NCBI GenBank assembly: GCA_045541055.1
Contig: JAZQIL010000183.1
Location: 4,878 to 68,877, forward strand
Length of the DNA: 64,000 bases
Direction: 5' to 3'
From: Oscillospiraceae bacterium
GTDB lineage: Bacteria > Bacillota > Clostridia > Oscillospirales > Ruminococcaceae
Positions 5,515 through 31,167 of this stretch are shown here, piece by piece. How positions within the stretch are numbered: the stretch's first letter is position 1; every line of letters begins with the position of its first letter. The translations under genes and the position numbers were made by a program. The notes below the pieces were generated by a model. That model saw only the letters and a list, made by a program, of their open reading frames with translations, was not told the origin of the DNA and did no database searches.

Positions 5515-8500
5515 TTATTCCTTACCAGTCATACCATTAAATTCGCCAATTTCCTTTGTATACTTCGGAAGCGGGCTTGTTAATGTGTCATACCAGTTCG
5601 GGTCGTTACCAGCACCCTGGTTAGCAGCGTATACGAGCATGAAGCCAGCATCGTTTGCACGCAGAGGTGAGTTCACGGTTTCGGAAATTGCATCAACTGC
5701 ACCATTGGAAGTAGCACCATGGTCTTCAGATTCGCCGTTGACATCGCTCAGGAAGTATACGAAATCTTCCAGAACAATCTTAGCATTTACTGCTTCTTCC
5801 AGTTCAGATAATTTCAGCTCTTCTTCTGTAATATCTTCAGCAAGAATCTTTGCTTCATTACCTGCACCGAAGTTCGCAGCATATACCAGAACGGATGCAG
5901 CATCCTTGGAGTTTACAACACCGTTCAGCGTTGTATCGCCCTTTACACCGATGTAAACAGTTCCTGTTACAGCTGCTGCATCATCTGCAAGCTCTTCTGT
6001 TACATTGCCGTTTTCATCTACATTGACAAACTTCCAGTCAGGTGCATTTTCCATGTTAGCATAATCTGCATTCACAGGAACAAATTTCAGTGTACTCTTG
6101 AAGTATGCATCATGTTTATTGCTGTTTGCATTGGCAACGATATAATCTCTGTACTTATCGGGTACCATTTCAGGGAATTCGTTTTCAAAGACAGCCTTCG
6201 GATTATTCAGGTCTTTATTCACCAGTTCAAAATCAACCAGTTCATTGACAGTAGACCAGTCGCTGACATGCGGATTTTCAGCAGTATTATCACTGTAGAT
6301 TTCACGTCTCTTCAGTGTACCTACTTCAATCAGGTCATTCTTCAGGTCAAACGGTCTGTTGTCATGTGAGAAGTAGAACTTCTTCTTGCCCTGAATATTG
6401 TACTGATACTGAACAACGGTAGGAACAACGTCTTCCGCCAGAACTTCAATATAGCCATCTACTTCAGTAACAGCAACTTTATTGTCGTTGACTTTGATTG
6501 CTTCTACTGTGTCGTTTACACCAGGTTCTTTGAAGGTGATTTTGTAGACATCAGCTGCTGTACCTTCTGGAACGTCAAAGTTCAGATATACAAGAATAGA
6601 GTTATTTGCAGCCTGTTCTTCATCTGCTGCACCAGCAAGTGTACCTGCAAACTGATTTTCAGTACCTTCTGTGATGTTCATCAACTTGTAAGAAGTACCA
6701 AGCGTAAAGCCAGTATACTTCGGACCTTCTTCGCCAAACTGGAAGTCAATATCAAACTTGAAGGAGTTCAGTTTCAAAGCTTCCAAATCTTCAGCAGTAA
6801 TTGTAATCGGAACGGAAACAGATGTGCCAGCATGTGTACTCTTGTTACCAATTTCCCATGTTGCTGTAAGGTCGCTGATTACTGGAGGCAATGTGTCAGA
6901 TTCAGTAGGAACTGTTTCAGAGCTGTCTTGTGTCGGCTCTACAGAAGGCTCAATGCTTTCATTTGTCTGGTCAGCAGTTTCGGAAGTATCTTCTGTAGAT
7001 TCAGAAGCCGGTTCACTGGAGGGTTCTGTAGATTCAGAAGCCGGTTCACTGGAAGGTTCTGTAGATTCAGAAACCGGTTCGCTGGAAGGTTCTGTAGATT
7101 CAGAAGCCGGTTCACTGGAAGGTTCTGTAGATTCAGAAGCCGGTTCACTGGAAGGTTCTGTAGATTCAGAAGCCGGTTCGCTGGAAGGTTCTGTAGATTC
7201 AGAAGCCGGTTCGCTGGAAGGTTCTGTAGATTCAGAAACCGGTTCGCTGGAAGGTTCTGTAGATTCAGAAACCGGTTCACTGGAAGGTTCTTCAGAAGAA
7301 GGAGCAATGACTTCAATCCAGCCAGGCTGCTTTTCAGGTGTCAGTTCAGCCATGTTAATGTCATAAACAGACAGGTCTGCAAAGGTCAGGTCATACTTGC
7401 CCGGTTCCATCGGAGCTGTGAAGGTTACATCAAATACAGTTGCGCCATCTTTGGAAAGTGCAATATTTTCTTTTACAGTTGTATTTGTCGCTGCAAAAGT
7501 CATGTTGTCAAGATTGGATACAAATTCCAGACCAGCATAAGCATCACCGTTTGCTGCTGCTGTACCATTGGTTAAGCCGGCAGCCAGACCCATCTTCATG
7601 ATGTAGCTGTTAATACCGTTCTTGTCACCCTTTACAGTAACAGGAATTGTAACGGTTGCACCAGGCTCTACAGTTGCTGTACCAATAATCCACATACCAG
7701 CATCGCCGATTTCAATTGATTCTTCTGTGCTTTCGGTAGGAGCTTCTGTACTTTCGGTGGGCTTTTCTGTGCTTTCAGCAGGAGCTTCTGTACTTTCAGT
7801 AGGAGCTTCTGTACTTTCAGTAGGAGCTTCTGTACTTTCTTCAGTAGCTTCACTGGTAGGAGCAATAACTTCAATCCAGCCAGGCTGCTTTTCAGGTGTC
7901 AGTTCAGACATGTTAATATCATAAACAGACAGGTCTGCAAAGGTCAGGTCATACTTGCCAGGTTCCATCGGAGCTGTGAAGGTTACATCAAATACAGTTG
8001 CACCGTCCTTGGAAAGTGCAATATTTTCTTTTACAGTTGTGTTTGTACCTGCAAAGGACATGTTGTCAAGATTGGATACAAATTCCAGACCAGCATAAGC
8101 ATCGCCGTTTGCTGCTGCTGTACCATTTGTTAAGCCATCAGCCAGACCCATCTTCATGATGTAGCTGTTAATACCGTTCTTATCACCAATTACAGTAACA
8201 GGAATAGTGACAGTTGCACCAGGTTCTACGGTTGCTGTGCCAATTACCCACAGACCAGCATCACTAACTTCACTAGGTAAAACTTGTTCACTGGTTTTTT
8301 CAGTAGTTTCAGTGGGCTTTTCTGTGGTTTCAGTAGGCTTTTCAGTAGGAACTTCTGTGCTGTCCGCAATCTTTTCAGTAGACCTTTCTGTAGTTTCAGT
8401 AGGAGCTTCTGTACTTTCTTCAGTAGCTTCACTGGTAGGAGCGATAACTTCAATCCAGCCGTTCTGCTTTTCAGGTGTCAACTCAGACATGTTAATGTCA

Positions 8501-14298: not shown

Positions 14299-14417
14299 AA
14301 CTAATTAATTCCTTTCTGTTTTAGTGGTCAGACGTTTGTCGCCGTCTGCCAGATAAATAATTTTTTTCCTAAGATGTCTCAACAAAAGATGTCAGAATTG
14401 GCGGACATTTTTTAAAA

Positions 14418-15257
14418 TCAAAGGTCAGCTTCTGTAATCATGCCAACAATCAGTTTCAGAACAGACATAGATTCGCTGGAATCCGGCTTGCTGTTGCCAT
14501 TGAAGTCAATGTTCTTGAGACCTTGTTCAGTCAGATTTTCCTTACCCATGATTGCCTTATTGATACTGATAACGTCAAGAATATCTACTTCACCGTTGCA
14601 GTCAGCATCACCTTTCTTACCTGTAGCAGGAGCTACATCTGTAGGCTTCTGTTCGGTAGTATCTTCAGCCTTACCAACAACAACTGCGCCGTTTGTAGAC
14701 TTTACAGCATAACCTGTAATTGTGCCGTCAGCACTCATTGTACCGATGTTGATATCGCTGTTTGCTTTGCCTGAACCGTCATAGGTTTCACGGCTGATAG
14801 CCTGGAACTTAATGTCGTAAGTACCATCTTTTGTGCCGTCTTTTACTTTACCGTTCAGTGTCAGGAACACACCGTCTTTTGTTACCCAGTAAGTGCTGTC
14901 ATCTAATGCAACACCATAAGTAACAGTAACAGTACCGTCTACGGAATAGTCAGCATCAAAAACGGTAACACCTTCAAAGCCTTCTTTTGCAGAAGCACCA
15001 GTATTTACGATTGCACCAGCTTCTGCACCAGTAATTGCAATTGCAGCAGAATCATAGGTCAGTTCAAATTCAACAGCATTCACACCAGCAGCAGGAACAC
15101 CGCTCAAACTAATTGCCATTGTAAAATCAGAGCCCGCAGTTGCTTTCACCTTTTCTCCGCTTACGGTAACAGTGTCAGCAGCAAAAACATTTTGTGCTGC
15201 GATGGTGGTCAACATGGAAACGGCAGCCAAAGCGGCAGCGATTTTCCTTACTCTCAT
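14418..15257 (-). CDS. Adaptor scaffoldin (ScaC-like): signal peptide, one cohesin, one dockerin
   Basis: MRVRKIAAALAAVSMLTTIAAQNVFA, then the cohesin pattern (VKATAGSDFTMAISLSGVPAAGVNAVEFELTYDSAAIAI...GTYDIKFQ). Dockerin: GDADCNGEVDILDVISINKAIMGKENL...FNGNSKPDSSESMSVLKLIVGMI. Start set at the ATG at 15257, preceded by GAAGGAGG. The ORF-track start at 15410 lies inside the predicted promoter. Confidence 0.88.
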   Translation of the reverse strand: MRVRKIAAALAAVSMLTTIAAQNVFAADTVTVSGEKVKATAGSDFTMAISLSGVPAAGVNAVEFELTYDSAAIAITGAEAGAIVNTGASAKEGFEGVTVFDADYSVDGTVTVTYGVALDDSTYWVTKDGVFLTLNGKVKDGTKDGTYDIKFQAISRETYDGSGKANSDINIGTMSADGTITGYAVKSTNGAVVVGKAEDTTEQKPTDVAPATGKKGDADCNGEVDILDVISINKAIMGKENLTEQGLKNIDFNGNSKPDSSESMSVLKLIVGMITEADL

Positions 15258-15381
15258 AATTGTCTTTCCTCCTTCATTTGTTTGGAAACATAAAATTAAA
15301 TCATACGTGTATATAACGGGTGGAAGAACTTCCTTCCCTATTATATTCTGTGACAGGACTGCCCCACATCTACTTATTGTT

Positions 15382-15410
15382 ATTATAGGACAAAATATCA
15401 CATAAGTCAA
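15382..15410 (-). promoter_or_regulatory. Sigma-A-type promoter of the scaffoldin locus
   Basis: On the minus strand, TTGACT (15410-15405), 17-nt spacer, TATAAT (15387-15382). This implies a 5' UTR of about 120 nt. Confidence 0.6.
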
Positions 15411-15730
15411 GAGAATTTCCTACATTTTGTACAAACTTCCAAAAACTTAATACAGCCTTTGTGCATTATGCCGAAACTCATGAATGGCATTTCAGGAAAT
15501 GGAAAAATTTTACCCATCTCAAACATCATATAAAACGTTTTCTGACATTTTGCGGAACATTTTCTCCTGCAATTATTATTATACACTATAATTTTAAAAA
15601 AGTAAATAGTTTTTTCGTTATTTTTTTAAAATCATTGTTTTATACAAATTTCAAGTCAGTAATTCTAAATTTCTCACAAAGGCTGGGATTTTTTAAGGTT
15701 TTTTCAACCTTTTTTCAAGAAAAGAGCTGT

Positions 15731-17083
15731 TTAATCGTCATCATTCTCATCATCATAATCATCATCGTAATCATCATCGTCTTCGCTGACAGTACCGGCA
15801 TGTCTGGTATAATTTCTCCGGAATTCTTCGGGAACGTTTTCTTCTATAATTGTATCAATGACACCCCAGCTCCATTCTTTGTGCGTACCGCTGGGTGCAT
15901 AGGGAAGGTAATGGTTTTCCACAAGTTCGTCTGTATACATATCATAAGGGTATACACGGACATTTGTCATATCAGAATCATAATGTGTGATAATCGGTGT
16001 CACACCAGCATCTTTAATTGTAATATTGCCTTCGGTATCACGGCAAATATGAAATTCTCCCAGTCCGCCGACTGCATTGAAATTATCTGTCTGACCGGAA
16101 ATGAAATTTCCTAATGAATAAAATACAAAGCCTTGTGTGCCGTCTGCTCTGGTTAAATACTCCATAGACTGGAGTGTGTGAGGCCCTGTGCCAATAATCA
16201 CATCTGCGCCCCAGTCTACCAGCTTCTGAGAAATTTCCTTCACAGAATCTTCAATTTCATGAGTATCTTCTTCGCCCCAGTGCATGGATACCACAACACA
16301 ATCCGTTTGTTCTGCAAGTTCCTGCACCTGTGAACGCATCAGTTCTTCATCTGCCATATACGGAATAATCAGCTCTGTATCTTCCGGCAAAACATAACCG
16401 TTTGTATGGTCTGTATATCCAAGCCAGCCAATTTTTAAGCCTTCTTTTTCTGTAATGCGATAATTATTCATATCTTTCTCATTACGATACGTTCCTAAAA
16501 CAACTACATTTCTGTTAGCTTCCTGAATCTTGTCCCAATAGTCCAGCGTATATTCAATTCCTTCTGTGCCTTTGTCCAGTACATGATTATTCGCCATATT
16601 GAACACATCAAAGCCAATATCTACTAAATTATACCCCAGTTCCACCGGAGAATTGAAATTTAAATTCGAGCCGGATAATTCTAACTTTCCGTCACAAATT
16701 AAAGTTTCCTGATTCACAAATGCTAAATCTGCTGCGGCAATTCTGTTTGCAATGTTCTGATAGCAATAGTGAAAATCATAAACAATTCCGTCTGCTGCAT
16801 ATTTAGAAGCCGTTTTATAAACACAGGTATGAATTAAATTATCTCCCGCTGCAACAACGCTTACTTCTGCCGGCTGAAACAATGGTTCTGTAGGCGGTTC
16901 TGTTTCTGTTGGAATCCCCACTGACTCCATATCAATTACATTATAACTTTCCTTTGTCTTATCCAATGCCGGTGCAGCTGGTGCAGAATAATTCCCTGAC
17001 TGCATCGGAATACTGCTGGAACAGCCAGCAAGCGAAACCATCAAAACAGCTGCTGTCAATATCATTGTTTTACGAAATTTCAT
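15731..17083 (-). CDS. CapA-family (PGA_cap metallophosphatase-like) lipoprotein with a poly-acidic C-terminal tail
   Basis: Lipobox in MKFRKTMILTAAVLMVSLAGCSS. Motifs VVAAGDNLIH, FVNQE, FNMANNH and VSMHWGEE. C-terminus EDDDDYDDDYDDENDDD. An ATG two codons upstream (17089) is an alternative start. Confidence 0.8.
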   Translation of the reverse strand: MKFRKTMILTAAVLMVSLAGCSSSIPMQSGNYSAPAAPALDKTKESYNVIDMESVGIPTETEPPTEPLFQPAEVSVVAAGDNLIHTCVYKTASKYAADGIVYDFHYCYQNIANRIAAADLAFVNQETLICDGKLELSGSNLNFNSPVELGYNLVDIGFDVFNMANNHVLDKGTEGIEYTLDYWDKIQEANRNVVVLGTYRNEKDMNNYRITEKEGLKIGWLGYTDHTNGYVLPEDTELIIPYMADEELMRSQVQELAEQTDCVVVSMHWGEEDTHEIEDSVKEISQKLVDWGADVIIGTGPHTLQSMEYLTRADGTQGFVFYSLGNFISGQTDNFNAVGGLGEFHICRDTEGNITIKDAGVTPIITHYDSDMTNVRVYPYDMYTDELVENHYLPYAPSGTHKEWSWGVIDTIIEENVPEEFRRNYTRHAGTVSEDDDDYDDDYDDENDDD

Positions 17084-17231
17084 ATTCATTTCCCTTCTAA
17101 TTTTGAAAAATTTTAATTATTTATATTATACCACAAATTATGATAAAATGCAACTATTTTTTTCACATTCTTGGCGAAAGAACTGCATAATTTTTAAAAA
17201 GCCGGACATGCTAATTCAGGAGGTGAACCGC

Positions 17232-18680
17232 ATGACAAAAAATCTTTCCGGCACATTGGAAGAAATGCTTGCTGATGTCCGTACTATCTGTGCAAACAGT
17301 TCAGATATTTTAATCAACAGAATTACAATAGGAGGGATTTCCTGTGCTTTACTTGGCTGTGAGGGCATGTTGTCCACTGCCATTATGACAGATTTAATTA
17401 TCCGGCCATTAATAGAAACTCCTCCCCAAAAAGACAGCAATCATTTATTTCAACATATCCAGCAACATTTATTATTATCTCTTGACAGACCTGTTGTCAG
17501 AAACTACGATGATTTATTTTGTTTTTTATACTCTGGCTTTGCAGTACTTCTGGCGGAAGGTCAGAATATTGCCCTTGCCTACGGTGTACAAGGCTATGAT
17601 AAAAAAAGTATCAGCGAACCTTCCGGAGAAGCCAATTTATTCGGCGCACATGACGGCTTAACAGAAACCGTCCGTACAAATATGTCTCTTCTCCGCAGAA
17701 GAATGAAAACGCCCCTCTTGAAATTTGAACTTTCCAAAGCTGGAAAATTAAGTCAGACAGATATTTGTCTTTGCTGGCTGACAGACAGAGTTCCTCCGCA
17801 ATTACTGTTCCAAATTAAAAAAGAATTAACCTCTACTGAACTGGATACAATTCTTTCTACAGGCTATTTACAGCCGTTTCTTGAAAAGTGCAGAGGGAGT
17901 TTGTTTGACAGTGTCAGCTTAAGTCAGCGACCTGATGTCCTTTGTTCAAAACTTCTGGAAGGCAGAGTCATTCTGTTAATAGACGGCACACCATTTGCTT
18001 TGGTCATTCCCAAATTATTTATTGAAAATTTTCAGACTTTAGACGATTATAATCACAAGCCTTACTATGCTGCATTCAGCAGATGGGTGAAATACAGTGC
18101 ATTTTTTATTGCTGTCTTATTACCAGCTTTATATATTGCTGTCAGTATGCACCATCCGGAACTTTTAAACAGCACTTTACTTTTTATCTTAACAGATGCA
18201 GAACAGAAAGCACCTCTTTCACTGCCCACTGAAACAATTTTTGTTTTGCTTATGTATGAAATCATTCGGGAAGCAGGGCTTCGCCTTCCGAAATCTGTCG
18301 GCGGTGCAGTCAGCATTGTATCTGGTTTAATTATTGGTGATGCGGCTGTCAGTTCAGGTCTTATCAGCACACCAATGCTCACCGTCACGGCTATTTCAGT
18401 AATTGCCGGATTTGTGACACCTGATTTAAATGCACCTGTTACAATTATGAGATTATTATTTATTCTGACGGGCGGTTTATGGGGGCTATTTGGAATCGGA
18501 CTGCTTGGCATGGCAATGCTTTATAATCTTTGTGCAACGGAAACATTCGGCTTTCCGGTCACTGCACCATTAGCACCTTTTTACAGCCGTGCCATGCGTG
18601 ATGTCGCTACCAGAGTTAATTTTCACAGAATGCAGCTTGGTAATTTCACTGTGGAGGAATATCATGAGCAAAATTCATAA
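17232..18680 (+). CDS. Spore germination protein, GerA family (A subunit)
   Basis: LLEGRVILLIDGTPFALVIPKLFIENFQTLDDYN and the C-terminal TM block are typical of GerAA/GerKA. Start at the ATG at 17232 after AGGAGG. Confidence 0.85.
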   Translation: MTKNLSGTLEEMLADVRTICANSSDILINRITIGGISCALLGCEGMLSTAIMTDLIIRPLIETPPQKDSNHLFQHIQQHLLLSLDRPVVRNYDDLFCFLYSGFAVLLAEGQNIALAYGVQGYDKKSISEPSGEANLFGAHDGLTETVRTNMSLLRRRMKTPLLKFELSKAGKLSQTDICLCWLTDRVPPQLLFQIKKELTSTELDTILSTGYLQPFLEKCRGSLFDSVSLSQRPDVLCSKLLEGRVILLIDGTPFALVIPKLFIENFQTLDDYNHKPYYAAFSRWVKYSAFFIAVLLPALYIAVSMHHPELLNSTLLFILTDAEQKAPLSLPTETIFVLLMYEIIREAGLRLPKSVGGAVSIVSGLIIGDAAVSSGLISTPMLTVTAISVIAGFVTPDLNAPVTIMRLLFILTGGLWGLFGIGLLGMAMLYNLCATETFGFPVTAPLAPFYSRAMRDVATRVNFHRMQLGNFTVEEYHEQNS

Positions 18681-19683
18681 TCATCAGCTGACTGCAATTT
18701 TATTTCTTTCTGGTGCGTGGTCAGTGATTTGTATCCCCTCACTTTACGGAAACGGGCAAATGACCGGAACAGCTTTCGCCTGTCTGCTTCAAATTTTATT
18801 ATGTCTGCCCATGTTAGCACTTCATTCAGGCACTTTCACAAACCAGATTCAAAAGCATAAATTATTAGGCATTCTTTATATTTTATTTTTCCTGATTTGT
18901 GGTGCAAATGGTTTCGCTCAGTTATGGGAAGCTGCACCGCCTCAGCTTCTGCCCTCTTCCGGAAAATTAACAGCTGCTGTGTTAATCGCTCTGACCTGTT
19001 TTTATACAAGTTCTGCCGGATTAAGAGCCACTGCAAGAGCCGCCCCCATTGTCATGGGATTATTTATCATTTCACTGCTTGTTTTAATTCTAGGAGCTTG
19101 GAAAAGAGCTGATTTAAGCCGTATTTCCTTTCAAACAGAAAACTTTCTCCCCAGTATCAAAACTTATTTTTCTTTAAGCGGTGAACTTGCTGCTGTCTGG
19201 ATTTTAACAGACCATATCCGCAATCATCATAAATTCAGTGCTGTAAATTTCTATTTAATTGCAAAAGCTTTATTTTGCATTTTCATTTTATTTTTCAGTA
19301 TCAGCGCAGGCGGAAGGCTGATTCATTTAAATGGCTATCCATTTTTCACGCTGACAGCCCTTTCCCAGCCTTTACAAGGTCAGAGAGCAGATGCCTTATA
19401 TATTTTAGTATTTGTCATGCTTCACATTATGCATACAACTTTACAAACCGGCATCGTGGAGCATATCGCTGAACAAATGTATCCTATTGCTGAAAAATGG
19501 TCTGCTCCTGTTTCTTTAATCTTCATGTTAATTCCGGCTTACTTCTTTAAAAGTGACATGCTGGAAAATATCATTTTCTGGTCACTGCCAGTTTTTATAT
19601 TTTTCATTCCCCTATACCTCAGAATCCGGCAGTTTTTCCGGAGTATTCAGAAAAAGGAGCAAACGCACTATGAAATGTCTTAA
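18664..19683 (+). CDS. Spore germination protein, B subunit (spore permease family)
   Basis: About 10 predicted TM helices. The ATG at 18664 follows GGAGGA and overlaps the preceding stop. Position is between the A and C subunits. Confidence 0.75.
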   Translation: MSKIHNHQLTAILFLSGAWSVICIPSLYGNGQMTGTAFACLLQILLCLPMLALHSGTFTNQIQKHKLLGILYILFFLICGANGFAQLWEAAPPQLLPSSGKLTAAVLIALTCFYTSSAGLRATARAAPIVMGLFIISLLVLILGAWKRADLSRISFQTENFLPSIKTYFSLSGELAAVWILTDHIRNHHKFSAVNFYLIAKALFCIFILFFSISAGGRLIHLNGYPFFTLTALSQPLQGQRADALYILVFVMLHIMHTTLQTGIVEHIAEQMYPIAEKWSAPVSLIFMLIPAYFFKSDMLENIIFWSLPVFIFFIPLYLRIRQFFRSIQKKEQTHYEMS

Positions 19684-20572
19684 ATTTTTACTGCCTTGTA
19701 TTTGTATATTCTTCACTGGATGCAGTTCTGAAATGATTTCCGACAGACTTTACACACAGTCTGTCGGGTTCACCTGTGACGGGGAAAATTTAAGCTTTTA
19801 CACAGAAGACTTTCATCAAACAGTTTCTTTTCCTGTGGAAGGGGTCAGCATTTCAGAAGTTTTAAGACAGGAAGAAGCCTCTAATGGCGGAAAAGTGTTC
19901 ATTGGGCATACAGAATTATTATGCCTTGACGGTACTTGCACTTTAAATCCGGCAGAAGAATTGCTTTTTGATAACGGTCTTTCCCCTGCCTGCAAAGTCC
20001 TTTATGCGAAACCGGAAGAATTCTTTCAAAATCCGGATAATGCTTCTTTCATTCATGTCATTCGCATGTCAGAACAAAATGGTTTGCTCAGTACAACTGA
20101 ATTAGCTTCCGCTTTAAGCGAATGGCATGGCATCTGGGAAACTGCTTTGCTTCCCATGCAGAAAAAACAGCAAACTGTTCCGGCTTTGGTATTTCTTCAT
20201 AAAGACGGCAATTTTAAAGAATTATCCGATTCTGCTTCCAAAGGCATGTACTGGCTGAGAAGAAATTCCGGCAACTTTCATAAAACCCTTCAAACTCCTG
20301 ACGGCGAAAAAGATATTTTAATCAGAAGCTGCCGTATCGAAAAATCAATTCAGAATCAAGAATTATTTTATCACGTCATTGTCAGAACTGGTACTCCTGC
20401 ATTAAATACACTCCTTCAGGAAGAAATCGAAATGCAATGCCAAGCTGCTATCTTTGAAATGCTTTCCGCTAAAGCAGACGTTATCGGAATGCAGGATTTA
20501 TTTGAAAGTCACGGCATTCAGCCAGATAAAGAAATGAACCTGAAAATCAATTTAACAGTTACTGTAAATTAA
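19670..20572 (+). CDS. Spore germination lipoprotein, Ger(x)C family
   Basis: MKCLKFLLPCICIFFTGCSS lipobox. It is the third gene of the gerA-type operon and overlaps the B-subunit stop. RBS AAGGAG. Confidence 0.75.
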   Translation: MKCLKFLLPCICIFFTGCSSEMISDRLYTQSVGFTCDGENLSFYTEDFHQTVSFPVEGVSISEVLRQEEASNGGKVFIGHTELLCLDGTCTLNPAEELLFDNGLSPACKVLYAKPEEFFQNPDNASFIHVIRMSEQNGLLSTTELASALSEWHGIWETALLPMQKKQQTVPALVFLHKDGNFKELSDSASKGMYWLRRNSGNFHKTLQTPDGEKDILIRSCRIEKSIQNQELFYHVIVRTGTPALNTLLQEEIEMQCQAAIFEMLSAKADVIGMQDLFESHGIQPDKEMNLKINLTVTVN

Positions 20573-21186
20573 AATAATTCTTTTTTCAGATAAACAGAAT
20601 CCTGTTCAGTAATTTTCCGAATCACTTTACAAGGATTTCCAGCTGCAAGCACTCCAGCCGGAATGTCCCTCGTCACAACGCTTCCAGCCCCTATAATAGA
20701 ACCTGCTCCAATTGTCACCCCTCCGCAAATCGTCACATTACTTGCTATCCAGCAATTGTCCCCGATGGTAATCGGCTTCGCATATTCTAAATCATATAAA
20801 TCCCCGTTTTCACGGTATTTCATATTTCTTTCTTCAAAAAGAAATGGGTGCATCGGTGTTGCAAGCGTACAGTTTGGCGCAAAAAATACGTCATTTCCAA
20901 TTTTCACAGGCGCACAGTCCAGCACTGTTAAATTAAAATTCGCAAAACATCTGTCCCCAAACCATGTGAATTCCCCATAATCAAACTGTATCGGTGACTG
21001 TAAATACAATTCCTTCCCAGCATGTGGAATTAACTCTTTTAAAATTTGCGCTCTTTTCTCGAATTCGTCTTCATAAGTATCATTATAATCTTTTGAAAGT
21101 TTATGTGCCTTTCTTCTCATCAAAGTAAGTTCTTCCCCAGAAGCATCATAAAGCTTTCCAGCAATCATTTTTTCCTTTTCAGTCAT
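20569..21186 (-). CDS. maa: Maltose/galactoside O-acetyltransferase (hexapeptide-repeat family)
   Basis: N-terminus MTEKEKMIAGKLYDA and IGDNCWIASNVTICGGVTIGAGSIIGAGSVVTRDIPAGVLAAGNPCKVIR. Start at 21186 follows GGAAGGAG. The longer ORF-track start would overlap the upstream terminator. Confidence 0.85.
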   Translation of the reverse strand: MTEKEKMIAGKLYDASGEELTLMRRKAHKLSKDYNDTYEDEFEKRAQILKELIPHAGKELYLQSPIQFDYGEFTWFGDRCFANFNLTVLDCAPVKIGNDVFFAPNCTLATPMHPFLFEERNMKYRENGDLYDLEYAKPITIGDNCWIASNVTICGGVTIGAGSIIGAGSVVTRDIPAGVLAAGNPCKVIRKITEQDSVYLKKELF

Positions 21187-21202
21187 TTCAAAAACTCCTT
21201 CC

Positions 21203-21233
21203 AAAAAAGACACCCCAGAAAGTCCGGAGTGTC
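21203..21233 (-). terminator. Intrinsic terminator after the zinc-ribbon/Sel1-like gene
   Basis: On the minus strand, GACACUCC/GGGGUGUC hairpin (one G-U pair) followed by UUUUUU. Confidence 0.5.
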
Positions 21234-21242
21234 TGAAACTAT

Positions 21243-22292
21243 TTATTTCTGGTTCATGGTATACTTAATATGTTCAATAGCCGCCTGTGCATAATCATTC
21301 ACTTTTTCGGAGCTATTTGCATCAAGGGCTTTCTGATACCATTCTAAAGCCTTTTCCGGCTGCGCTCTCATACCGCCGCTGCCGTTCAGATAAATTTCAC
21401 CAATGGCAAGCTGTGACAATACCAAACCTCTGTTAGAAGCTTCTGTATGCCATGCAATCGCTCTGTCAGGATTCTGTGGGAATGGATATGTTCCATTCTT
21501 GTAGCTGTCTGCTACTTGGAACATAACATGCAGCAGCACTTCACGTTCTTTCTGTTCAAGTGTGTCAATCTGCCCTTTAATTTCACGGAGGAAACTCAGC
21601 ATACTAATCATGTAATTCTTTGTTCTGGGCTTGCCTAAGAATGTCCAGCTTCCCATTTCGTCCATTTCGGAAACGGTGAAAATTGCATAGTCTACTAAAT
21701 CGTCCAGATTATCACGAACTGGTGCAGGTGCAGGCTTGGGAGCTTCTGCCTGCTGTACCTTTTCCGGAGGCGGAAGTGTAGATGCTAAAGAAGATGTTTC
21801 AGCTGCCGGAGCTTCTTCGGGAGCTGGTGCAGGTGCAGGCTTTGGCGCATTTACTTTTTCAGTTGTATGTGCTTTTTCCATGCGTTCATAAACCAGATTG
21901 TCTTTTGCATTTGTAATCTGATTCATCAATTCTCTGTAACGAGCCTGTCTTCTTTCATCTCCTAAGAAACTTGCACGGCGTTCCTGCATGAGAATATAAT
22001 CCAGCATATGAATGCATCTTTCCATAGGTTCAATTGCTTCCATTTTCGGTGCCATGTAAGCAATTTTTTCAACGATGATAGAATATAAGAACATAGATTT
22101 TTCCATATGTCTGTTATGTTCTTCACTTGTGCCGAGTCTGCCCTGACGGTATTCTTCGTCAGCGAGTTCTTTGAGCTTATCCACGCTCATTTTATCTGTG
22201 CCTTTGCGCCACTGATGTGCGCCGCAGTTTTTGCAGCTAATCTGATTATTTGCCAGTCTTGCGCCGCAGCTGTAACAAACTTTCTGTGCCAT
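21243..22292 (-). CDS. Hypothetical protein: N-terminal zinc ribbon, Pro/Ala-rich spacer, C-terminal Sel1/TPR-like repeat
   Basis: CYSCGARLANNQISCKNCG (CxxC-N10-CxxC), KPAPAPAP stretches, and AIAWHTEASNRGLVLSQLAIGEIYLNGSGGMRAQPEKALEWYQKA, which resembles a Sel1 repeat. Confidence 0.6.
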   Translation of the reverse strand: MAQKVCYSCGARLANNQISCKNCGAHQWRKGTDKMSVDKLKELADEEYRQGRLGTSEEHNRHMEKSMFLYSIIVEKIAYMAPKMEAIEPMERCIHMLDYILMQERRASFLGDERRQARYRELMNQITNAKDNLVYERMEKAHTTEKVNAPKPAPAPAPEEAPAAETSSLASTLPPPEKVQQAEAPKPAPAPVRDNLDDLVDYAIFTVSEMDEMGSWTFLGKPRTKNYMISMLSFLREIKGQIDTLEQKEREVLLHVMFQVADSYKNGTYPFPQNPDRAIAWHTEASNRGLVLSQLAIGEIYLNGSGGMRAQPEKALEWYQKALDANSSEKVNDYAQAAIEHIKYTMNQK

Positions 22293-27420: not shown

Positions 27421-27543
27421 ACATTCTCCTTTTTCAACAAAGTTTCAACATTTCAAATGTTGAATGTTTAAAACCTATTATACTCAAAAAAAAAAAATAC
27501 AATACTTTCCGGAAAATTTCTCCTAAAAACCTATTTTTTCAAC

Positions 27544-27569
27544 AAAAAAGCCCTGCCGAAACAGAGCTT
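27544..27569 (-). terminator. Intrinsic terminator after the 255-aa-frame CAP-dockerin gene
   Basis: The sequence is nearly the same as the pck terminator (AAGCCCTGCCGAAACAGAGCTT), with a U-run on the minus strand. Confidence 0.5.
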
Positions 27570-27574
27570 TTTGT

Positions 27575-28294
27575 TTATTTTCTTAAATACGTTTCAATAT
27601 CTTCTTCTCCCCCTGCCCCTGCAAAAGCAGCATATCTTAAAATTCCTGCTGCATCAGAAGCATTCACAAAACTGTCATGATTCACATCTGCATAATATTT
27701 TTGCATTCGGTTCAGAATTTCTTCACTTCCTGCACCCTGACAGGCCGCATTCACCAGCACTAATGCCGCATCTTGTGCATTTGTGCTTATGTCCCTGTTG
27801 ATATTTCCGTAAGTATACAATGGCATTAAATCTTTCCCGTCTGTAAATATCTGCACCCAGTAAATACCATCTGTACCCTGTGCAACCCCTATTCCAATCG
27901 CTCCAAACGATTCGTGAAGAATGTTGTCACGATGATGTTCTGAATTCATCCAGCCATTTACAACTGCTTGCTCATTCTTAAAACCAGCAGCAATATTTTC
28001 GCCTACTTCCCAGTAAGTACCGCCTAAATCTGTCACTACTGTAAAACCTCTTCTGCCGTCCGGCCGTTCATGAGAAAAATTTTTTACAATTTCCTCCGCC
28101 CGAATCTGTGCAGCCTGATTCAGCAATTCCGATTCAGAAAGCGCATTCAAGCCGTATAAAGCCCTTTGTTCATTGACAAGCATCACAACTTCATCTTTTT
28201 GATTCTGATAAGAATCTTCTGCTTTTACAGGCATCACTGCCAAGCCTGAAAAAAGTACAGCAATCACTGCAATGGCAGCTTGCTTTTTTTTCAT
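27575..28294 (-). CDS. Secreted CAP/SCP-domain protein with a C-terminal dockerin-like module
   Basis: Signal peptide MKKKQAAIAVIAVLFSGLAVMPVKA. CAP-like motifs (VNEQRALYGLNAL, GENIAAGF, VNGWMNSEHHRDNIL, FGAIGIG). C-terminal paired segments: NAQDAALVLVNAACQGAG and DVNHDSFVNASDAAGILRYAAFAGAG. Start set at 28294 after AGGGGTGA. Confidence 0.75.
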   Translation of the reverse strand: MKKKQAAIAVIAVLFSGLAVMPVKAEDSYQNQKDEVVMLVNEQRALYGLNALSESELLNQAAQIRAEEIVKNFSHERPDGRRGFTVVTDLGGTYWEVGENIAAGFKNEQAVVNGWMNSEHHRDNILHESFGAIGIGVAQGTDGIYWVQIFTDGKDLMPLYTYGNINRDISTNAQDAALVLVNAACQGAGSEEILNRMQKYYADVNHDSFVNASDAAGILRYAAFAGAGGEEDIETYLRK

Positions 28295-28338
28295 AGTCAT
28301 CACCCCTGATAAATTACAAACCACAGCCAGCAAATATC

Positions 28339-29409
28339 TCAATATCCAAATGCATAATTTGGCGGATTTGTTTCTGTCTCTTTGGTTGTGTCGCCAGTGT
28401 CTGTTTCTTTTTCTTTCAAATATGCTTCTAATGTTCCGTTAAAAGCACCTGAACCATATTCAGCAGCATACTGTAAAACGATAGCTGCATCTTTGGAATT
28501 GACAACATTATCCTGATTCAAGTCAGCAAGATTTCTGATTTTATCCTGTTCTTCCCAGCTAATTTCATAAAGTGTTCCTGCACCGGCATGAGCGGCATAT
28601 ACAAGGATTCTAGCAGCATCTGAGGCATTTACATTACCGTTGCTGTCCACATCGCCCCAGTTTTTAGTTTGAACTGGTTCAGTTGTTTCTTCTGTCGTGG
28701 TTGTTGTTTCTTCTGTTGTGGAAGTCGTTGTAGTTGTAGTCGTTTCTGGTGTCGTGGAAGTCGTTGTAGTAGTTGTTGTTTCCGGTGTTGTGGAAGTCGT
28801 TGTAGTTGTGGTCGTTTCCTCTGTTGTAGTTGTTGTTTCTTCTGTTGTAGTTGTGGTTGTTTCCTCTGTAGTAGTTGTTGTTTCTTCCGGTGTAGTTTCT
28901 GTATATGTTGGTTCAACGTCCTCCCCTGTCGCATCTGCAAAAAGTAAAGCCGCATAATAAAGCCCATTTGAAGCCTTTGTCACACCAACCCCCATGAAAT
29001 TAAATCTCGCATTTATCATTTTGGATTTTTCGGTGGACTGCCCTGCTAAAAAATTATACATCTGGTCAATTGTAGAACACTGCCCCGCAATACTACAAGC
29101 TCCTGCTCCATAATTGATGCCATAATCTTTCATAATAGTCGCACCTATCTGACCATTCGGACGCTTGCTCGAAAATAATTGTAATGCTTCCTGCACTCTT
29201 GCATCTGCCGCTTCCTGCATCAGCGGTGTTGTCTGAAAAGGTGTTAAACCATTCTGTTGACGCAGCTCATTTATCAGTGAAAGCATCTGCTCTTCTTCTG
29301 ATTCATACGCTGCACTGACTGCTAACGGCTCATAAACTGGTGTCATGCTCATGCCAACACTGGAAAGCAATATCCCTGCTGAAAGTAATACAGCTAATTG
29401 TTTCTTCAT
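28339..29409 (-). CDS. Secreted CAP/SCP-domain protein with a Thr-rich linker and a C-terminal dockerin
   Basis: Signal peptide MKKQLAVLLSAGILLSSVG. CAP-like N-domain (LINELRQQNGLTPF..., FMGVGV), then an (E)TTTTT linker. Dockerin: GDVDSNGNVNASDAARILVYAAHAGAG ... DLNQDNVVNSKDAAIVLQYAAEYGSG. ATG at 29409 lies 10 nt after AGGAGG; a TTG two codons upstream is the ORF-track start. Confidence 0.78.
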   Translation of the reverse strand: MKKQLAVLLSAGILLSSVGMSMTPVYEPLAVSAAYESEEEQMLSLINELRQQNGLTPFQTTPLMQEAADARVQEALQLFSSKRPNGQIGATIMKDYGINYGAGACSIAGQCSTIDQMYNFLAGQSTEKSKMINARFNFMGVGVTKASNGLYYAALLFADATGEDVEPTYTETTPEETTTTTEETTTTTTEETTTTTEETTTTTTTSTTPETTTTTTTSTTPETTTTTTTSTTEETTTTTEETTEPVQTKNWGDVDSNGNVNASDAARILVYAAHAGAGTLYEISWEEQDKIRNLADLNQDNVVNSKDAAIVLQYAAEYGSGAFNGTLEAYLKEKETDTGDTTKETETNPPNYAFGY

Positions 29410-29550
29410 TTTCAAAAACCTCCTGTATATTTGAAATAATTACTAATTTTATCATAGCAGATATTTCCGGAAAACACAAGCATTTTTTCTGTTCAAAAAA
29501 AAAATCAGCTGTCTGCACAAATTGGCTTTTTAAAATTTTTGCATATCTTA

Positions 29551-29579
29551 CAAAAATCCCCTGCTGTTACACAGGGGAT
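29551..29579 (-). terminator. Intrinsic terminator after the 493-aa dockerin gene
   Basis: ATCCCCTG/CAGGGGAT hairpin with a U-run on the minus strand. Confidence 0.6.
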
Positions 29580-29600
29580 TTCAAGTTCAAATTATATATA

Positions 29601-31082
29601 TTATAATGTATCATTCACACCGACAATATATTTCAGTACTTCCAAAGAGTCTCCAGCATCCGGCGCACCGTTTTTATTCACATCCGCAGAACTGCATTGT
29701 GCTTCTGAAAGTGTTTCCTTGCCGAGGCAAGCTTTATTCAAAACGACTACATCTAAAATGTCTACATTTCCGTCTGTCATGACATCCCCAGGGGCAACTC
29801 CAAGACAGATAAAATAACCAATAGCACTGTGTACAGGGAAATCTTTCAGCTGTTCAGGCGTGACTTCTGCATAAATCTTTCCATTGATGATGTTTCTAAT
29901 TTCAATGCCGTTTTCTCTAAGGCGGTCAGGTTCTGCCTGTGTGAGTTCTTCTCTTAATACGTTGAAATATTTACTTTGTTCCTGCACAATCTGCTGAACC
30001 TGATTTCCAAGTTCTTTGCTGATAGGAGTTTGATTTCTGTCGGCTTCATAGAACATTTCCATAATTTGCGCATAAGTCTGACCGTCCATTTCATGTGAAT
30101 TCAAGAACTGTTCTCTTTCTTCCTGATAGGCTTCACTGTATTCTACATCAGGATACATCTGAATGACAACACCAATTTTCACTTCCGGAAATTCTTCCAT
30201 AATGCCGTTGACAAGTTCACTGCAATCAAATGTCCCAGCATTCGGCACATATTCAGCTGCAATGAAATCATCTATTAAACGTCCGTCATCTGTGATGTAA
30301 GTGCTGTAAGCTGTATTGTTAATAATGCCATATTTGCCCTCATAGTCTCTGAGGTCAGCTACACCCTGATTAAATGTATGTTTTGCTTCTTCCACAGGGT
30401 CATATATTAAAACTGGTGCAAGGGCAATTAAATAGCAAAAATGCGAATTCGCTGGGAAATTTTTAAGCTGTTCTGCTGTGATGTAAGCTTGCTTTTCATA
30501 TAGTCCGGGTTTGGATTCCAGCATTTCAAAGCCATTTTCTTTAAGGCGGTTTTCTTCCTCTGAAAGTTCTTCGCTGATAATATGATTGACATAATTTTTT
30601 GTTTCCTGAAGAACAAATCTTCTTTGAATGGACATTTCTTTATAATTGTCTTCAAATGCCTGTTCTCCTACAGAATTTCTGATTGCTTCTGCTTCCGCCA
30701 TAAATTCCGCATAAGTTTTCCCCTCAATGGTATGTTCCTGCTGGTAAGCGTCTGTTAATTTCTGACGTTCTTCATTGGAATAGTGATAACTTATCCGAAC
30801 AGAAAACTTTGCATCCGGATATAATTCCATAACCTTTTCCAGCAAAGGGGTGAGTTCATAAGTTCCGCCCTTTGCATCAGCGTTTGGAAATCCGCCGTCA
30901 CGACAAGTTTTCAAAGAAAAATATACTAAATTATCTTCCGTGACAGCATGAGATTCTTCCAGCGTGTAGCGATTGTTTACAAGATACTCTGTACTGCTTT
31001 CTGCATCTGCAAAAGTTTTCACATTTGGCATACTGCAAGTTATGAGTGCTAATGCACATAAAACAGAAATGATTTTTTTCAT
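29601..31082 (-). CDS. Secreted dockerin protein of unknown function with an internally duplicated ~190-aa module
   Basis: Signal peptide MKKIISVLCALALITCSMPNVKTFA; AAAGGAGG RBS before the ATG at 31082. Two related modules, for example ...EHTIEGKTYAEFM...RLKENGFEM...ITAEQLKNFP versus ...SHEMDGQTYAQIM...RLRENGIEI...VTPEQLKDFP. Dockerin: GDVMTDGNVDILDVVVLNKACLGKETL...VNKNGAPDAGDSLEVLKYIVGVNDTL. Confidence 0.8.
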   Translation of the reverse strand: MKKIISVLCALALITCSMPNVKTFADAESSTEYLVNNRYTLEESHAVTEDNLVYFSLKTCRDGGFPNADAKGGTYELTPLLEKVMELYPDAKFSVRISYHYSNEERQKLTDAYQQEHTIEGKTYAEFMAEAEAIRNSVGEQAFEDNYKEMSIQRRFVLQETKNYVNHIISEELSEEENRLKENGFEMLESKPGLYEKQAYITAEQLKNFPANSHFCYLIALAPVLIYDPVEEAKHTFNQGVADLRDYEGKYGIINNTAYSTYITDDGRLIDDFIAAEYVPNAGTFDCSELVNGIMEEFPEVKIGVVIQMYPDVEYSEAYQEEREQFLNSHEMDGQTYAQIMEMFYEADRNQTPISKELGNQVQQIVQEQSKYFNVLREELTQAEPDRLRENGIEIRNIINGKIYAEVTPEQLKDFPVHSAIGYFICLGVAPGDVMTDGNVDILDVVVLNKACLGKETLSEAQCSSADVNKNGAPDAGDSLEVLKYIVGVNDTL

Positions 31083-31167
31083 AATGATTCCTCCTTTAAA
31101 AGCGTTTAGAGTTGTTTTTCTGCTTCTACTCATAAAGACGGAATTTTATTGCATTTCTGACAGCTTT

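Follow-up and report, generated by a model that had tools for sequence, protein, structure and literature searches.

Cohesin-dockerin systems are usually read as organisers of enzymes, and a dockerin borne by a protein of another kind raises the question of which cohesin it addresses and where its carrier is taken. Two adjacent genes, here called CAP1 and CAP2, pose this question in a stretch of 64,000 nucleotides (hereafter the window) from an Oscillospiraceae bacterium (assembly GCA_045541055.1, contig JAZQIL010000183.1, positions 4,878 to 68,877 of the forward strand). They lie among other dockerin genes, 13 kb from a scaC-scaA-scaB operon, and each specifies a secreted protein with a CAP (SCP/PR-1-like) domain and a C-terminal dockerin. 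By analogy with the cellulosome of Ruminococcus flavefaciens FD-1, we propose, with a probability that we put at roughly 60%, that these two Sec-exported proteins are displayed at the cell wall via a ScaE-like cohesin or a paralogous adaptor cohesin.

The initial annotation had described the pair as adjacent secreted proteins of this make-up, and the description is upheld: both open reading frames (ORFs) are on the minus strand, and their domains exceed the Pfam gathering cut-offs (21.1 bits for CAP, PF00188; 22.9 bits for Dockerin_1, PF00404). CAP2 (28339..29409, minus strand, 356 aa) consists of a signal peptide, a degenerate CAP domain, a Thr-rich linker and a dockerin, and CAP1 (27575..28300, minus strand, 241 aa) of a signal peptide, a canonical YkwD-type CAP domain, a short spacer and a dockerin. 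Read by eye from the sequence, each N-terminus opens with a lysine-rich segment, which is followed by a hydrophobic core and a cleavage site of AxA type. In Pfam residue numbers, which count from the TTG starts of the ORFs (255 aa for CAP1 and 358 aa for CAP2), the CAP1 matches cover residues 55-166 (CAP; 70.6 bits, E = 2.6e-19) and 179-234 (Dockerin_1; 30.2 bits), and the CAP2 matches residues 45-154 (CAP; 24.6 bits, E = 5e-5, just over the cut-off) and 254-316 (Dockerin_1; 34.1 bits). The CAP1 dockerin (27596..27817, minus strand) contains the repeats NINRDISTNAQDAALVLVNAACQGAG and DVNHDSFVNASDAAGILRYAAFAGAG; that of CAP2 (28399..28662, minus strand) contains the calcium-loop repeats DVDSNGNVNASDAARILVYAAHAGAG and DLNQDNVVNSKDAAIVLQYAAEYGSG and, in the structural model, a fourth helix. 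All six dockerin repeat strings quoted in the initial annotation occur in the translations.

The identity of the partner cohesin can be approached through the kind of dockerin involved. The assembly (4.42 Mb in 311 contigs) has 138 Pfam dockerin matches, and an iterated custom hidden Markov model (HMM) yielded 145 matches in 142 ORFs. When 139 dockerins were aligned on the HMM match columns and grouped by average-linkage clustering, three large clusters of 63, 41 and 23 members were obtained. The 23-member cluster holds CAP1, CAP2 and the X-dockerin at the C-terminus of the window's ScaB-like scaffoldin (5515..6414, minus strand), which serves as the reference member of the class; the last 300 residues of this scaffoldin match the CttA X-dockerin of FD-1 (4IU2_B; E = 1.7e-7). 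The mean identity of these three dockerins is 0.39-0.42 to their own cluster, as against 0.20-0.24 to the two enzyme clusters. The 63-member cluster takes in the window's two leucine-rich repeat (LRR) proteins, a 510-aa protein encoded upstream of the CAP genes, and ScaC; the dockerins of ScaA and of the xylanase are each in a small cluster apart. It had been suggested that the CAP dockerins resemble the ScaB X-dockerin and not those of the LRR proteins or the xylanase, and the clustering of 139 sequences makes this likeness more than a chance one. A phmmer search with the ScaB X-dockerin as query also returned CAP2 among its matches. The two repeats of a dockerin are more alike in this class (mean repeat-to-repeat identity 0.50; 0.45 for CAP1 and for CAP2) than in the enzyme clusters (0.32-0.34), and its members share the signature N-[AS]-[KRSQ]-D-A-x-x-[IV]-L-x-Y-[AS]-A-x-x-G-[AS]-G. 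There are four genes with a CAP domain in the genome; the third (contig C266) also encodes a dockerin, and the fourth (contig C260) a cysteine-rich tail and no dockerin. The C266 dockerin was considered as lying outside the class, having clustered with a dockerin from contig C95; its nearest neighbours, however, all belong to the 23-member cluster, and we therefore regard the split as a linkage artefact.

This three-way division of the dockerins matches that of R. flavefaciens FD-1, where dockerins of group 1 bring cellulases to ScaA and ScaB and those of groups 3 and 6 bring hemicellulases to ScaC; those of group 4, with their similar repeats, have ScaE as their partner and occur on ScaB, CttA, peptidases and transglutaminase-like proteins (PMC2930009, PMC5301203). 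The 23-member class corresponds to group 4. Experiments in FD-1 have demonstrated that group-4 dockerins without an X module bind ScaE, and that dockerins of this group also bind the ScaG and ScaH cohesins (PMC5301203, PMC12270676); an extra fourth helix has been called distinctive of the group (PMC12270676). The CAP dockerins are like those of the FD-1 group-4 (4a) proteins (the ScaH, ScaF and ScaI dockerins and a peptidase-dockerin protein) in their similar repeats and in having no X module. They are like group 4 also in having passengers that are not carbohydrate-active enzymes (CAZymes) and in sharing a class with the X-dockerins of ScaB and CttA. Because its Pfam CAP score was marginal, CAP2 was modelled with AlphaFold2 (AF2) on a 22-sequence alignment (residues counted from the ATG at 29409). 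In this model, a prediction for CAP2 only, the dockerin region forms four helices (residues 262-277, 285-295, 305-320 and 327-337), and the sole dockerin among the top Protein Data Bank (PDB) fold matches is 8AJY_B, the group-4 dockerin of ScaH solved with the ScaE cohesin (E = 5.7e-5, template-modelling (TM) score 0.79, root-mean-square deviation (rmsd) 2.3 Å, 30% identity). The CAP1 dockerin has a weak sequence match to the same structure.

The complexes of the CttA and ScaB X-dockerins with ScaE (4IU2, 4IU3, 2ZF9) offer a second comparison. The helix signature DAxxILVYAAxxGAG is common to the dockerins of the CAP proteins, of the window's ScaB and of a CttA-like protein on contig C162, and the presumed partner of the CAP proteins is likewise a ScaE-like cohesin. 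Unlike the X-dockerins, the CAP proteins have neither an X module nor the three stalk-stiffening insertions, and they are not load-bearing anchors; in particular, neither CAP dockerin has a between-repeat insertion like that of ScaB. Thus, the label "ScaB-type" given to these dockerins in the initial annotation holds for class membership, on the evidence of the clustering, the similar repeats and the 8AJY_B match, and overstates the likeness where the X module and the insertions are concerned. The comparison with FD-1 has limits of its own: the host is a different species, its closest named relative being an uncultured rumen Ruminococcus known from a metagenome-assembled genome (MAG), and a CAP domain as passenger is not mentioned in the FD-1 literature that was searched.

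A candidate for a ScaE-like partner does exist in this genome. The window's sca operon ends after scaB. The phmmer search with the ScaB X-dockerin led to a closer X-dockerin gene, CttA-like, at the end of contig C162 (E = 7.5e-37), whose X-dockerin likewise belongs to the 23-member class, and directly downstream of this gene lies a gene (10266-11369, minus strand) for a ScaE-like protein of 368 aa. This protein comprises, in order, a signal peptide, a module of ~195 aa, a Thr-rich linker and an SSSPKTG-VEDVLPIAGVAAAVAVLGGVAVATKKKKD tail, with a hydrophobic stretch and KKKKD after the SPKTG sorting motif. Among PDB structures, its AF2 model best matches 2ZF9, the ScaE cohesin of R. flavefaciens (E = 3.5e-5, probability 1.00, TM score 0.50), and next the ScaG cohesin 4N2O. 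Neither a word-index homolog search nor a single-sequence metagenome scan gave any relatives of the module; a profile scan and the fold search succeeded. Relatives are present in 47 of 50 genomes of the genus, an SPxTG-like sorting-signal tail ends eleven of the ScaE-like homologs that were fetched (this genome's included), and in the profile scan the order X-dockerin gene, then scaE-like gene, was retained in four metagenome loci. With its predicted type III cohesin fold, its sortase signal and its position after an X-dockerin gene, the C162 protein would qualify as a ScaE-type anchoring scaffoldin.

Other routes to an anchor were followed and abandoned. An HMM built from nine ScaB cohesins retrieved ScaB alone. 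The only LPXTG-bearing cohesin found by regular expression, on contig C95 (350 aa, LPQTG), was rejected as the anchor of ScaB because its cohesin, in a sequence search of the PDB, matches those of Clostridium thermocellum CipA and Acetivibrio cellulolyticus ScaB and ScaC, which we take to be mostly of type I, and not R. flavefaciens ScaE; it is kept here as a second anchor. Its gene (12885-13934, minus strand) is directly downstream of that of a 2620-aa LRR protein (14013-21872, minus strand) with a canonical type I dockerin, and the two may form a separate anchoring pair. The C95 cohesin is also one of three LPQTG proteins (the others at C15, 29424-32060 and 32686-34782, both on the plus strand) that have in common, just before the sorting signal, a domain of ~60 aa with the pattern ...KKTGT.V......D....I.L.D..........D..TG.GT.... 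Finally, an X-dockerin-like fragment on contig C232 (6958-7647, minus strand; 230 aa, no start codon) was tried as a route to an anchor, and no anchor was present there; the fragment adjoins recombinase and restriction-modification genes and probably represents what is left of a scaffoldin in a mobile region.

Several observations weigh against docking of the CAP proteins on a ScaE-like cohesin. In FD-1, a Gly-Arg pair at dockerin positions 10/11 mediates ScaE recognition; here the pair is A or S followed by K, R, S or Q, and specifically A-Q and A-S in CAP1 and A-S and S-K in CAP2. The local X-dockerins are also without Gly-Arg (S-K and A-N in ScaB, A-R and A-R in the CttA-like protein), so that in this lineage the code for ScaE recognition seems to have shifted in concert. 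In CAP1 the first calcium loop has an unusual form, with N at position 1 and I at position 6, and this is conserved in the CAP1 orthologs. The model of the ScaE-like cohesin is a modest one (mean predicted local distance difference test (pLDDT) score 59, predicted TM score (pTM) 0.60, from a five-sequence alignment), and a sequence search of the PDB with this module gave no match at E up to 1. There are, moreover, other possible partners in the genome: a 1039-aa protein on contig C133, which has a module 69% identical to the ScaE-like cohesin as well as a dockerin of the same class and which resembles the adaptors ScaH and ScaF; a putative cohesin-X-dockerin protein on contig C293; the divergent eleventh cohesin of ScaB; and the second anchored cohesin, on C95. 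Lastly, we know of no established function for bacterial CAP domains, and a study of the Borrelia protein BB0689 (4D53) is said to have found no ligand.

The claim of the initial annotation that these proteins dock on the anchor cohesin of the cellulosome itself therefore survives in part: the class assignment, the FD-1 precedent and the ScaE-like anchor in the genome speak for it, and the absence of Gly-Arg and the paralogous adaptor cohesins on C133 and C293 weaken it. Those cohesins suggest an alternative in which the partner of the CAP dockerins is an adaptor or accessory cohesin (the C133 module, the N-terminal module of the C293 protein or the eleventh cohesin of ScaB, which adjoins the X-dockerin of that protein) and not ScaE itself, so that the CAP proteins would be attached indirectly to the surface, or to the base of the cellulosome. 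We consider this unlikely, though to be taken seriously, given the closeness of the C133 module to the ScaE-like cohesin, the same-class dockerin alongside it, and the ScaG and ScaH binding by group-4 dockerins in FD-1, where ScaH is able to come between ScaB and ScaE. The N-terminal module of the C293 protein, on the other hand, is only a putative cohesin and has no Pfam match. Nothing separates adaptor binding from docking on ScaE in the present data, and display near the cell surface would follow either way.

The company that the CAP proteins keep within their dockerin class bears on a further question, namely whether they belong to the enzyme array at all. When 22 of the 23 class members were scanned with Pfam, no plant-cell-wall glycoside hydrolase (GH), carbohydrate esterase (CE), polysaccharide lyase (PL) or carbohydrate-binding module (CBM) was found. 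The class includes, in addition to the window's two CAP proteins, ScaB and adaptor scaffoldins, proteins with BspA-type LRR repeats, a C1 peptidase with a lectin-like domain, two transglutaminase-like proteins with choline-binding repeats, an N-acetylmuramoyl-L-alanine amidase (Amidase_3) and a GH25 muramidase; several members have no Pfam match beyond the dockerin, or none whatever, and some of the genes are arranged in small tandem operons. Ten random proteins sampled from each of the two other clusters have a different content: GH48, GH9-CBM3 and GH30 in the 63-member cluster, and pectate lyase, GH5, GH11-CE4, CBM2 and Cthe_2159 in the 41-member cluster. Plant-cell-wall modules thus occur in 0 of 21 class members and in 8 of the 20 sampled proteins (Fisher's exact p = 0.0013). 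It is very unlikely, in our estimation, that the CAP proteins are ordinary cellulosome passengers, carried on the enzyme-integrating cohesins of ScaA and ScaB and with the plant substrate as their target, for instance through the binding of lipids, sterols or phenolics that are set free from forage. The location of their genes near the sca operon, among dockerin genes, fits such a role, as does the presence of Pry1 structures among the fold matches of CAP2, eukaryotic CAP proteins such as Pry1 being known to bind sterols and fatty acids. Yet the CAP dockerins are on average only 0.20-0.24 identical to the clusters that bear GH48, GH9, GH5 and GH11, and no plant-cell-wall enzyme was found among the scanned members of their own class.

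Other proteins with repeats or dockerins of this class may be mentioned here. Three LRR or other proteins (C50, 45633-46922; C287, 105923-107278; C16, 67205-68683; all on the minus strand) have one ScaB-class repeat at their start or end (for example DASWILVYAADLGAG) and are reminiscent of the group-2 dockerins of FD-1, which are truncated by nature and bind ScaE two at a time. On contig C53 (2450-4435, plus strand), a stop-free frame combines a ScaB-class dockerin with a serine recombinase (Resolvase, Recombinase and Zn_ribbon_recom domains). Its paralogs on C3, C5 and C269 run on into LRR repeats, and C53 is probably a case of a mobile element inserted into an LRR-dockerin gene.

The CAP domains of the two proteins differ markedly in their degree of conservation. 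In CAP1, the domain (27845..28180, minus strand) has the segments FSHERPDG, GENIAAG and SEHHRDNIL intact and matches 4IFA in sequence (E = 7e-8). In the alignment, CAP1 and its orthologs retain FSHxRPDG, GENIA, WMNSxGHRxNIL and YWVQxF, and CAP1 keeps all three of the conserved His/Glu/His cleft residues. In CAP2, the model has pLDDT above 90 over residues 33-160 (28930..29313, minus strand). Its top PDB matches by Foldseek are the bacterial SCP/CAP structures 4IFA, 4H0A and 4D53 (E = 3e-6 to 1e-5, rmsd 1.6-2.4 Å; for BB0689, 4D53, a TM score on the target of 0.85 and an rmsd of 1.8 Å), followed by GAPR-1 and plant PR-1. The CAP fold of CAP2 is thus confirmed at the level of the predicted structure. 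In the alignment, FSH is replaced by FSS, GENIA by GACSIA and GHRxNIL by EKSKMIN, leaving S, C and K at the cleft positions; the segments of CAP2 at the motif positions of CAP1 read FSSKRPNG, GACSIA, STEKSKMIN and YAALLF. As judged from this alignment, CAP2 is a CAP fold stripped of all three conserved His/Glu/His cleft residues. The same replacements are present in P0122, which is 66% identical to CAP2; in P0124 and P0125, more distant relatives of the upstream copy, the two histidines are lost and the glutamate is kept.

Both proteins share the alpha-beta-alpha CAP fold with the YkwD/SCP-type proteins of bacteria (Bacillus anthracis 4IFA, Staphylococcus aureus SAV1118 4H0A and Borrelia BB0689 4D53). 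CAP1 is like these proteins also in its FSH, GENIA and GHRxNIL motifs, and secretion and, by our proposal, association with the envelope are further traits that both CAP1 and CAP2 have in common with them. They differ in that a dockerin takes the part of the anchoring module, rather than an SH3b, SLH or ChW module or a lipid anchor, and in the loss of the cleft residues from CAP2. The nearest NCBIfam family of both is YkwD (TIGR02909), with 101.5 bits for CAP1 and 49.8 bits for CAP2 against a curated cut-off of 171; on these scores they appear related to the YkwD branch and are not members of it by the NCBI rule. A second NCBIfam model, DalA (NF052539), aligns across the CAP1 domain (E = 4.7e-10, 39.6 bits against a 200-bit cut-off). 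DalA is a divisome-associated peptidoglycan-binding lipoprotein of Rhodobacter sphaeroides (PMC10470522). The two have the same type of domain and both are envelope-tethered, CAP1 by our proposal, but DalA is Gram-negative and lipid-anchored, and the score is so far under the cut-off that CAP1 is not an ortholog. A function shared with DalA is no more than a lead.

On the mechanism that we propose, CAP1 and CAP2 would be exported by Sec, their dockerins would fold with calcium, and these would bind the type III cohesin of the sortase-anchored C162 protein or of a paralogous adaptor, probably in either orientation, since the two repeats are similar. This would place the CAP domains on the cell wall, next to the cellulosome but outside the enzyme array. 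CAP1 would be held close to the cohesin, because its CAP domain and dockerin are only ~10 residues apart, and CAP2 would stand at the end of a Thr-rich stalk. This stalk is the Thr/Glu/Pro-rich linker of ~82 residues (28669..28914, minus strand), which is absent from CAP1 and its orthologs in the alignment. Linkers rich in Thr are generally taken to be glycosylated and extended. The AF2 model renders the segment as four beta-hairpin strands (pLDDT ~80-84), which may be an artefact of the repeat. Since all three cleft residues have been lost, CAP2 is probably a binding-only or regulatory paralog. Moreover, the amidase, muramidase and transglutaminase-like proteins in the class, together with the domain-level likeness to DalA, favour a role of the CAP domains that is probably directed at the cell envelope and not at plant polymers. 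A broader and more doubtful speculation is that the dockerin class to which ScaB, the CttA-like protein and the CAP proteins belong acts as a general "cell-wall address", which would bring a wall-maintenance set (Amidase_3, the GH25 muramidase, the transglutaminase-like proteins, the peptidases and the CAP proteins) to ScaE-type cohesins, with CAP1 and CAP2 as an active/pseudo pair for the binding or regulation of peptidoglycan turnover around the anchor of the cellulosome.

The fusion is typical of this lineage. A survey of Ruminococcus genomes for CAP-dockerin fusions, as the initial annotation had advised, took in 49 other genomes of the genus; among the matches listed, at least 40 of these genomes have a single open frame in which the match extends from the CAP domain across the second dockerin repeat, and this retention argues for selection on the dockerin. 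Decay of the dockerins, or their reduction to calcium-binding stabilisers with the CAP proteins released free into the medium, accordingly deserves scarcely any credence: the first loop of CAP1 does depart from the D-x-D/N-x-D/N-G consensus, and most dockerins of LRR proteins bound none of the cohesins tested in FD-1 screens, but the fusion has been kept, and orthologs at only ~55% overall identity still have both repeats, the helix signature and the fourth helix. To return to the fusion proteins themselves, the gene upstream is CAP2-like, with a Thr-rich linker and a dockerin, in two sister species (G010 and G016); in G033 and in the MAG RUG14155 it encodes an LRR-dockerin protein instead. 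In a sample of the family (250 genomes from 166 genera), relatives of the CAP domain occur in 84 of 251 genomes, this one counted, and matches that run on into a dockerin are confined to the genus and one genome of another genus (G071). In the wider protein database, the closest CAP homologs from other Firmicutes carry SH3_3, SLH, ChW, Big_2 or fn3 modules at this place, and the dockerin therefore fills the slot of modules that bind the cell wall or surface. In two sister genomes (G020, C91, 16361-16984, plus strand; G019, C1, 11799-12440, minus strand), a dockerin match precedes the CAP match within a single open frame, so the domain order of the fusion has been shuffled.

Within the window, the two genes are head to tail, and their ORFs extend from TTG codons over 28339-29415 (CAP2) and 27575-28342 (CAP1). 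The start of CAP2 is the ATG at 29409, with an AGGAGG sequence at 29419-29424, nine bases upstream, and 29409 had correctly been given as the end of the locus. CAP1 starts at an ATG at 28300 or 28294; the former fits P0002, a 241-aa database protein that is 99% identical to CAP1. The spacer between the genes (28301..28338, minus strand) is 38 nt long and contains no terminator, and the intergenic segment that takes in the stop codon of CAP2 (28301-28341) folds like its shuffles (z = 0.03). An intrinsic terminator, with a hairpin and a U-run, is found 3' of CAP1 (27541..27570, minus strand; -16 kcal/mol, z = -4.6), and another (29550..29582, minus strand; -19.2 kcal/mol, z = -5.6) belongs to the upstream gene for the 510-aa dockerin protein and isolates the CAP operon from it. 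Both were revealed by folding, a consensus terminator scan having picked up neither. Because strong hairpins with U-runs flank the pair and the spacer is without structure, CAP2-CAP1 is a bicistronic operon. The 510-aa protein (29601-31133, minus strand) is an internal duplication of a domain of ~200 aa, which, the dockerin apart, has no Pfam or NCBIfam family match.

The idea that proteins outside the cellulosome proper may be displayed through such dockerins is not new, the binding of ScaE by non-cellulosomal proteins with group-4 dockerins being already published for FD-1. A search of the literature for CAP/SCP domains together with dockerins gave a single result, a figure legend in which a CAP domain is mentioned for scaffoldins from human ruminococci (PMC13463774). 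The novelty here is minor and lies in the residue-depleted CAP2, in the restriction of the fusion largely to one genus and in the CAZyme-free make-up of the dockerin class.

About one sixth of the dockerins of this genome (23 of 139) belong to a class in which no plant-cell-wall enzyme was found (22 of 23 scanned), a class that includes cell-wall hydrolases and with which three CAP proteins are counted, the C266 protein by its nearest neighbours. The practical value of this is modest; the dockerin classes would serve as a wiring diagram. By analogy, the model derived from FD-1, in which group 4 binds ScaE, would extend to a distant Ruminococcus lineage of the rumen. The intact CAP1 and the residue-depleted CAP2 constitute a conserved and easily expressed pair, which offers a handle on the function of bacterial CAP domains. 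If the cell-wall-address reading were true, it would give the YkwD-type CAP domains a first defined role in the Gram-positive envelope.

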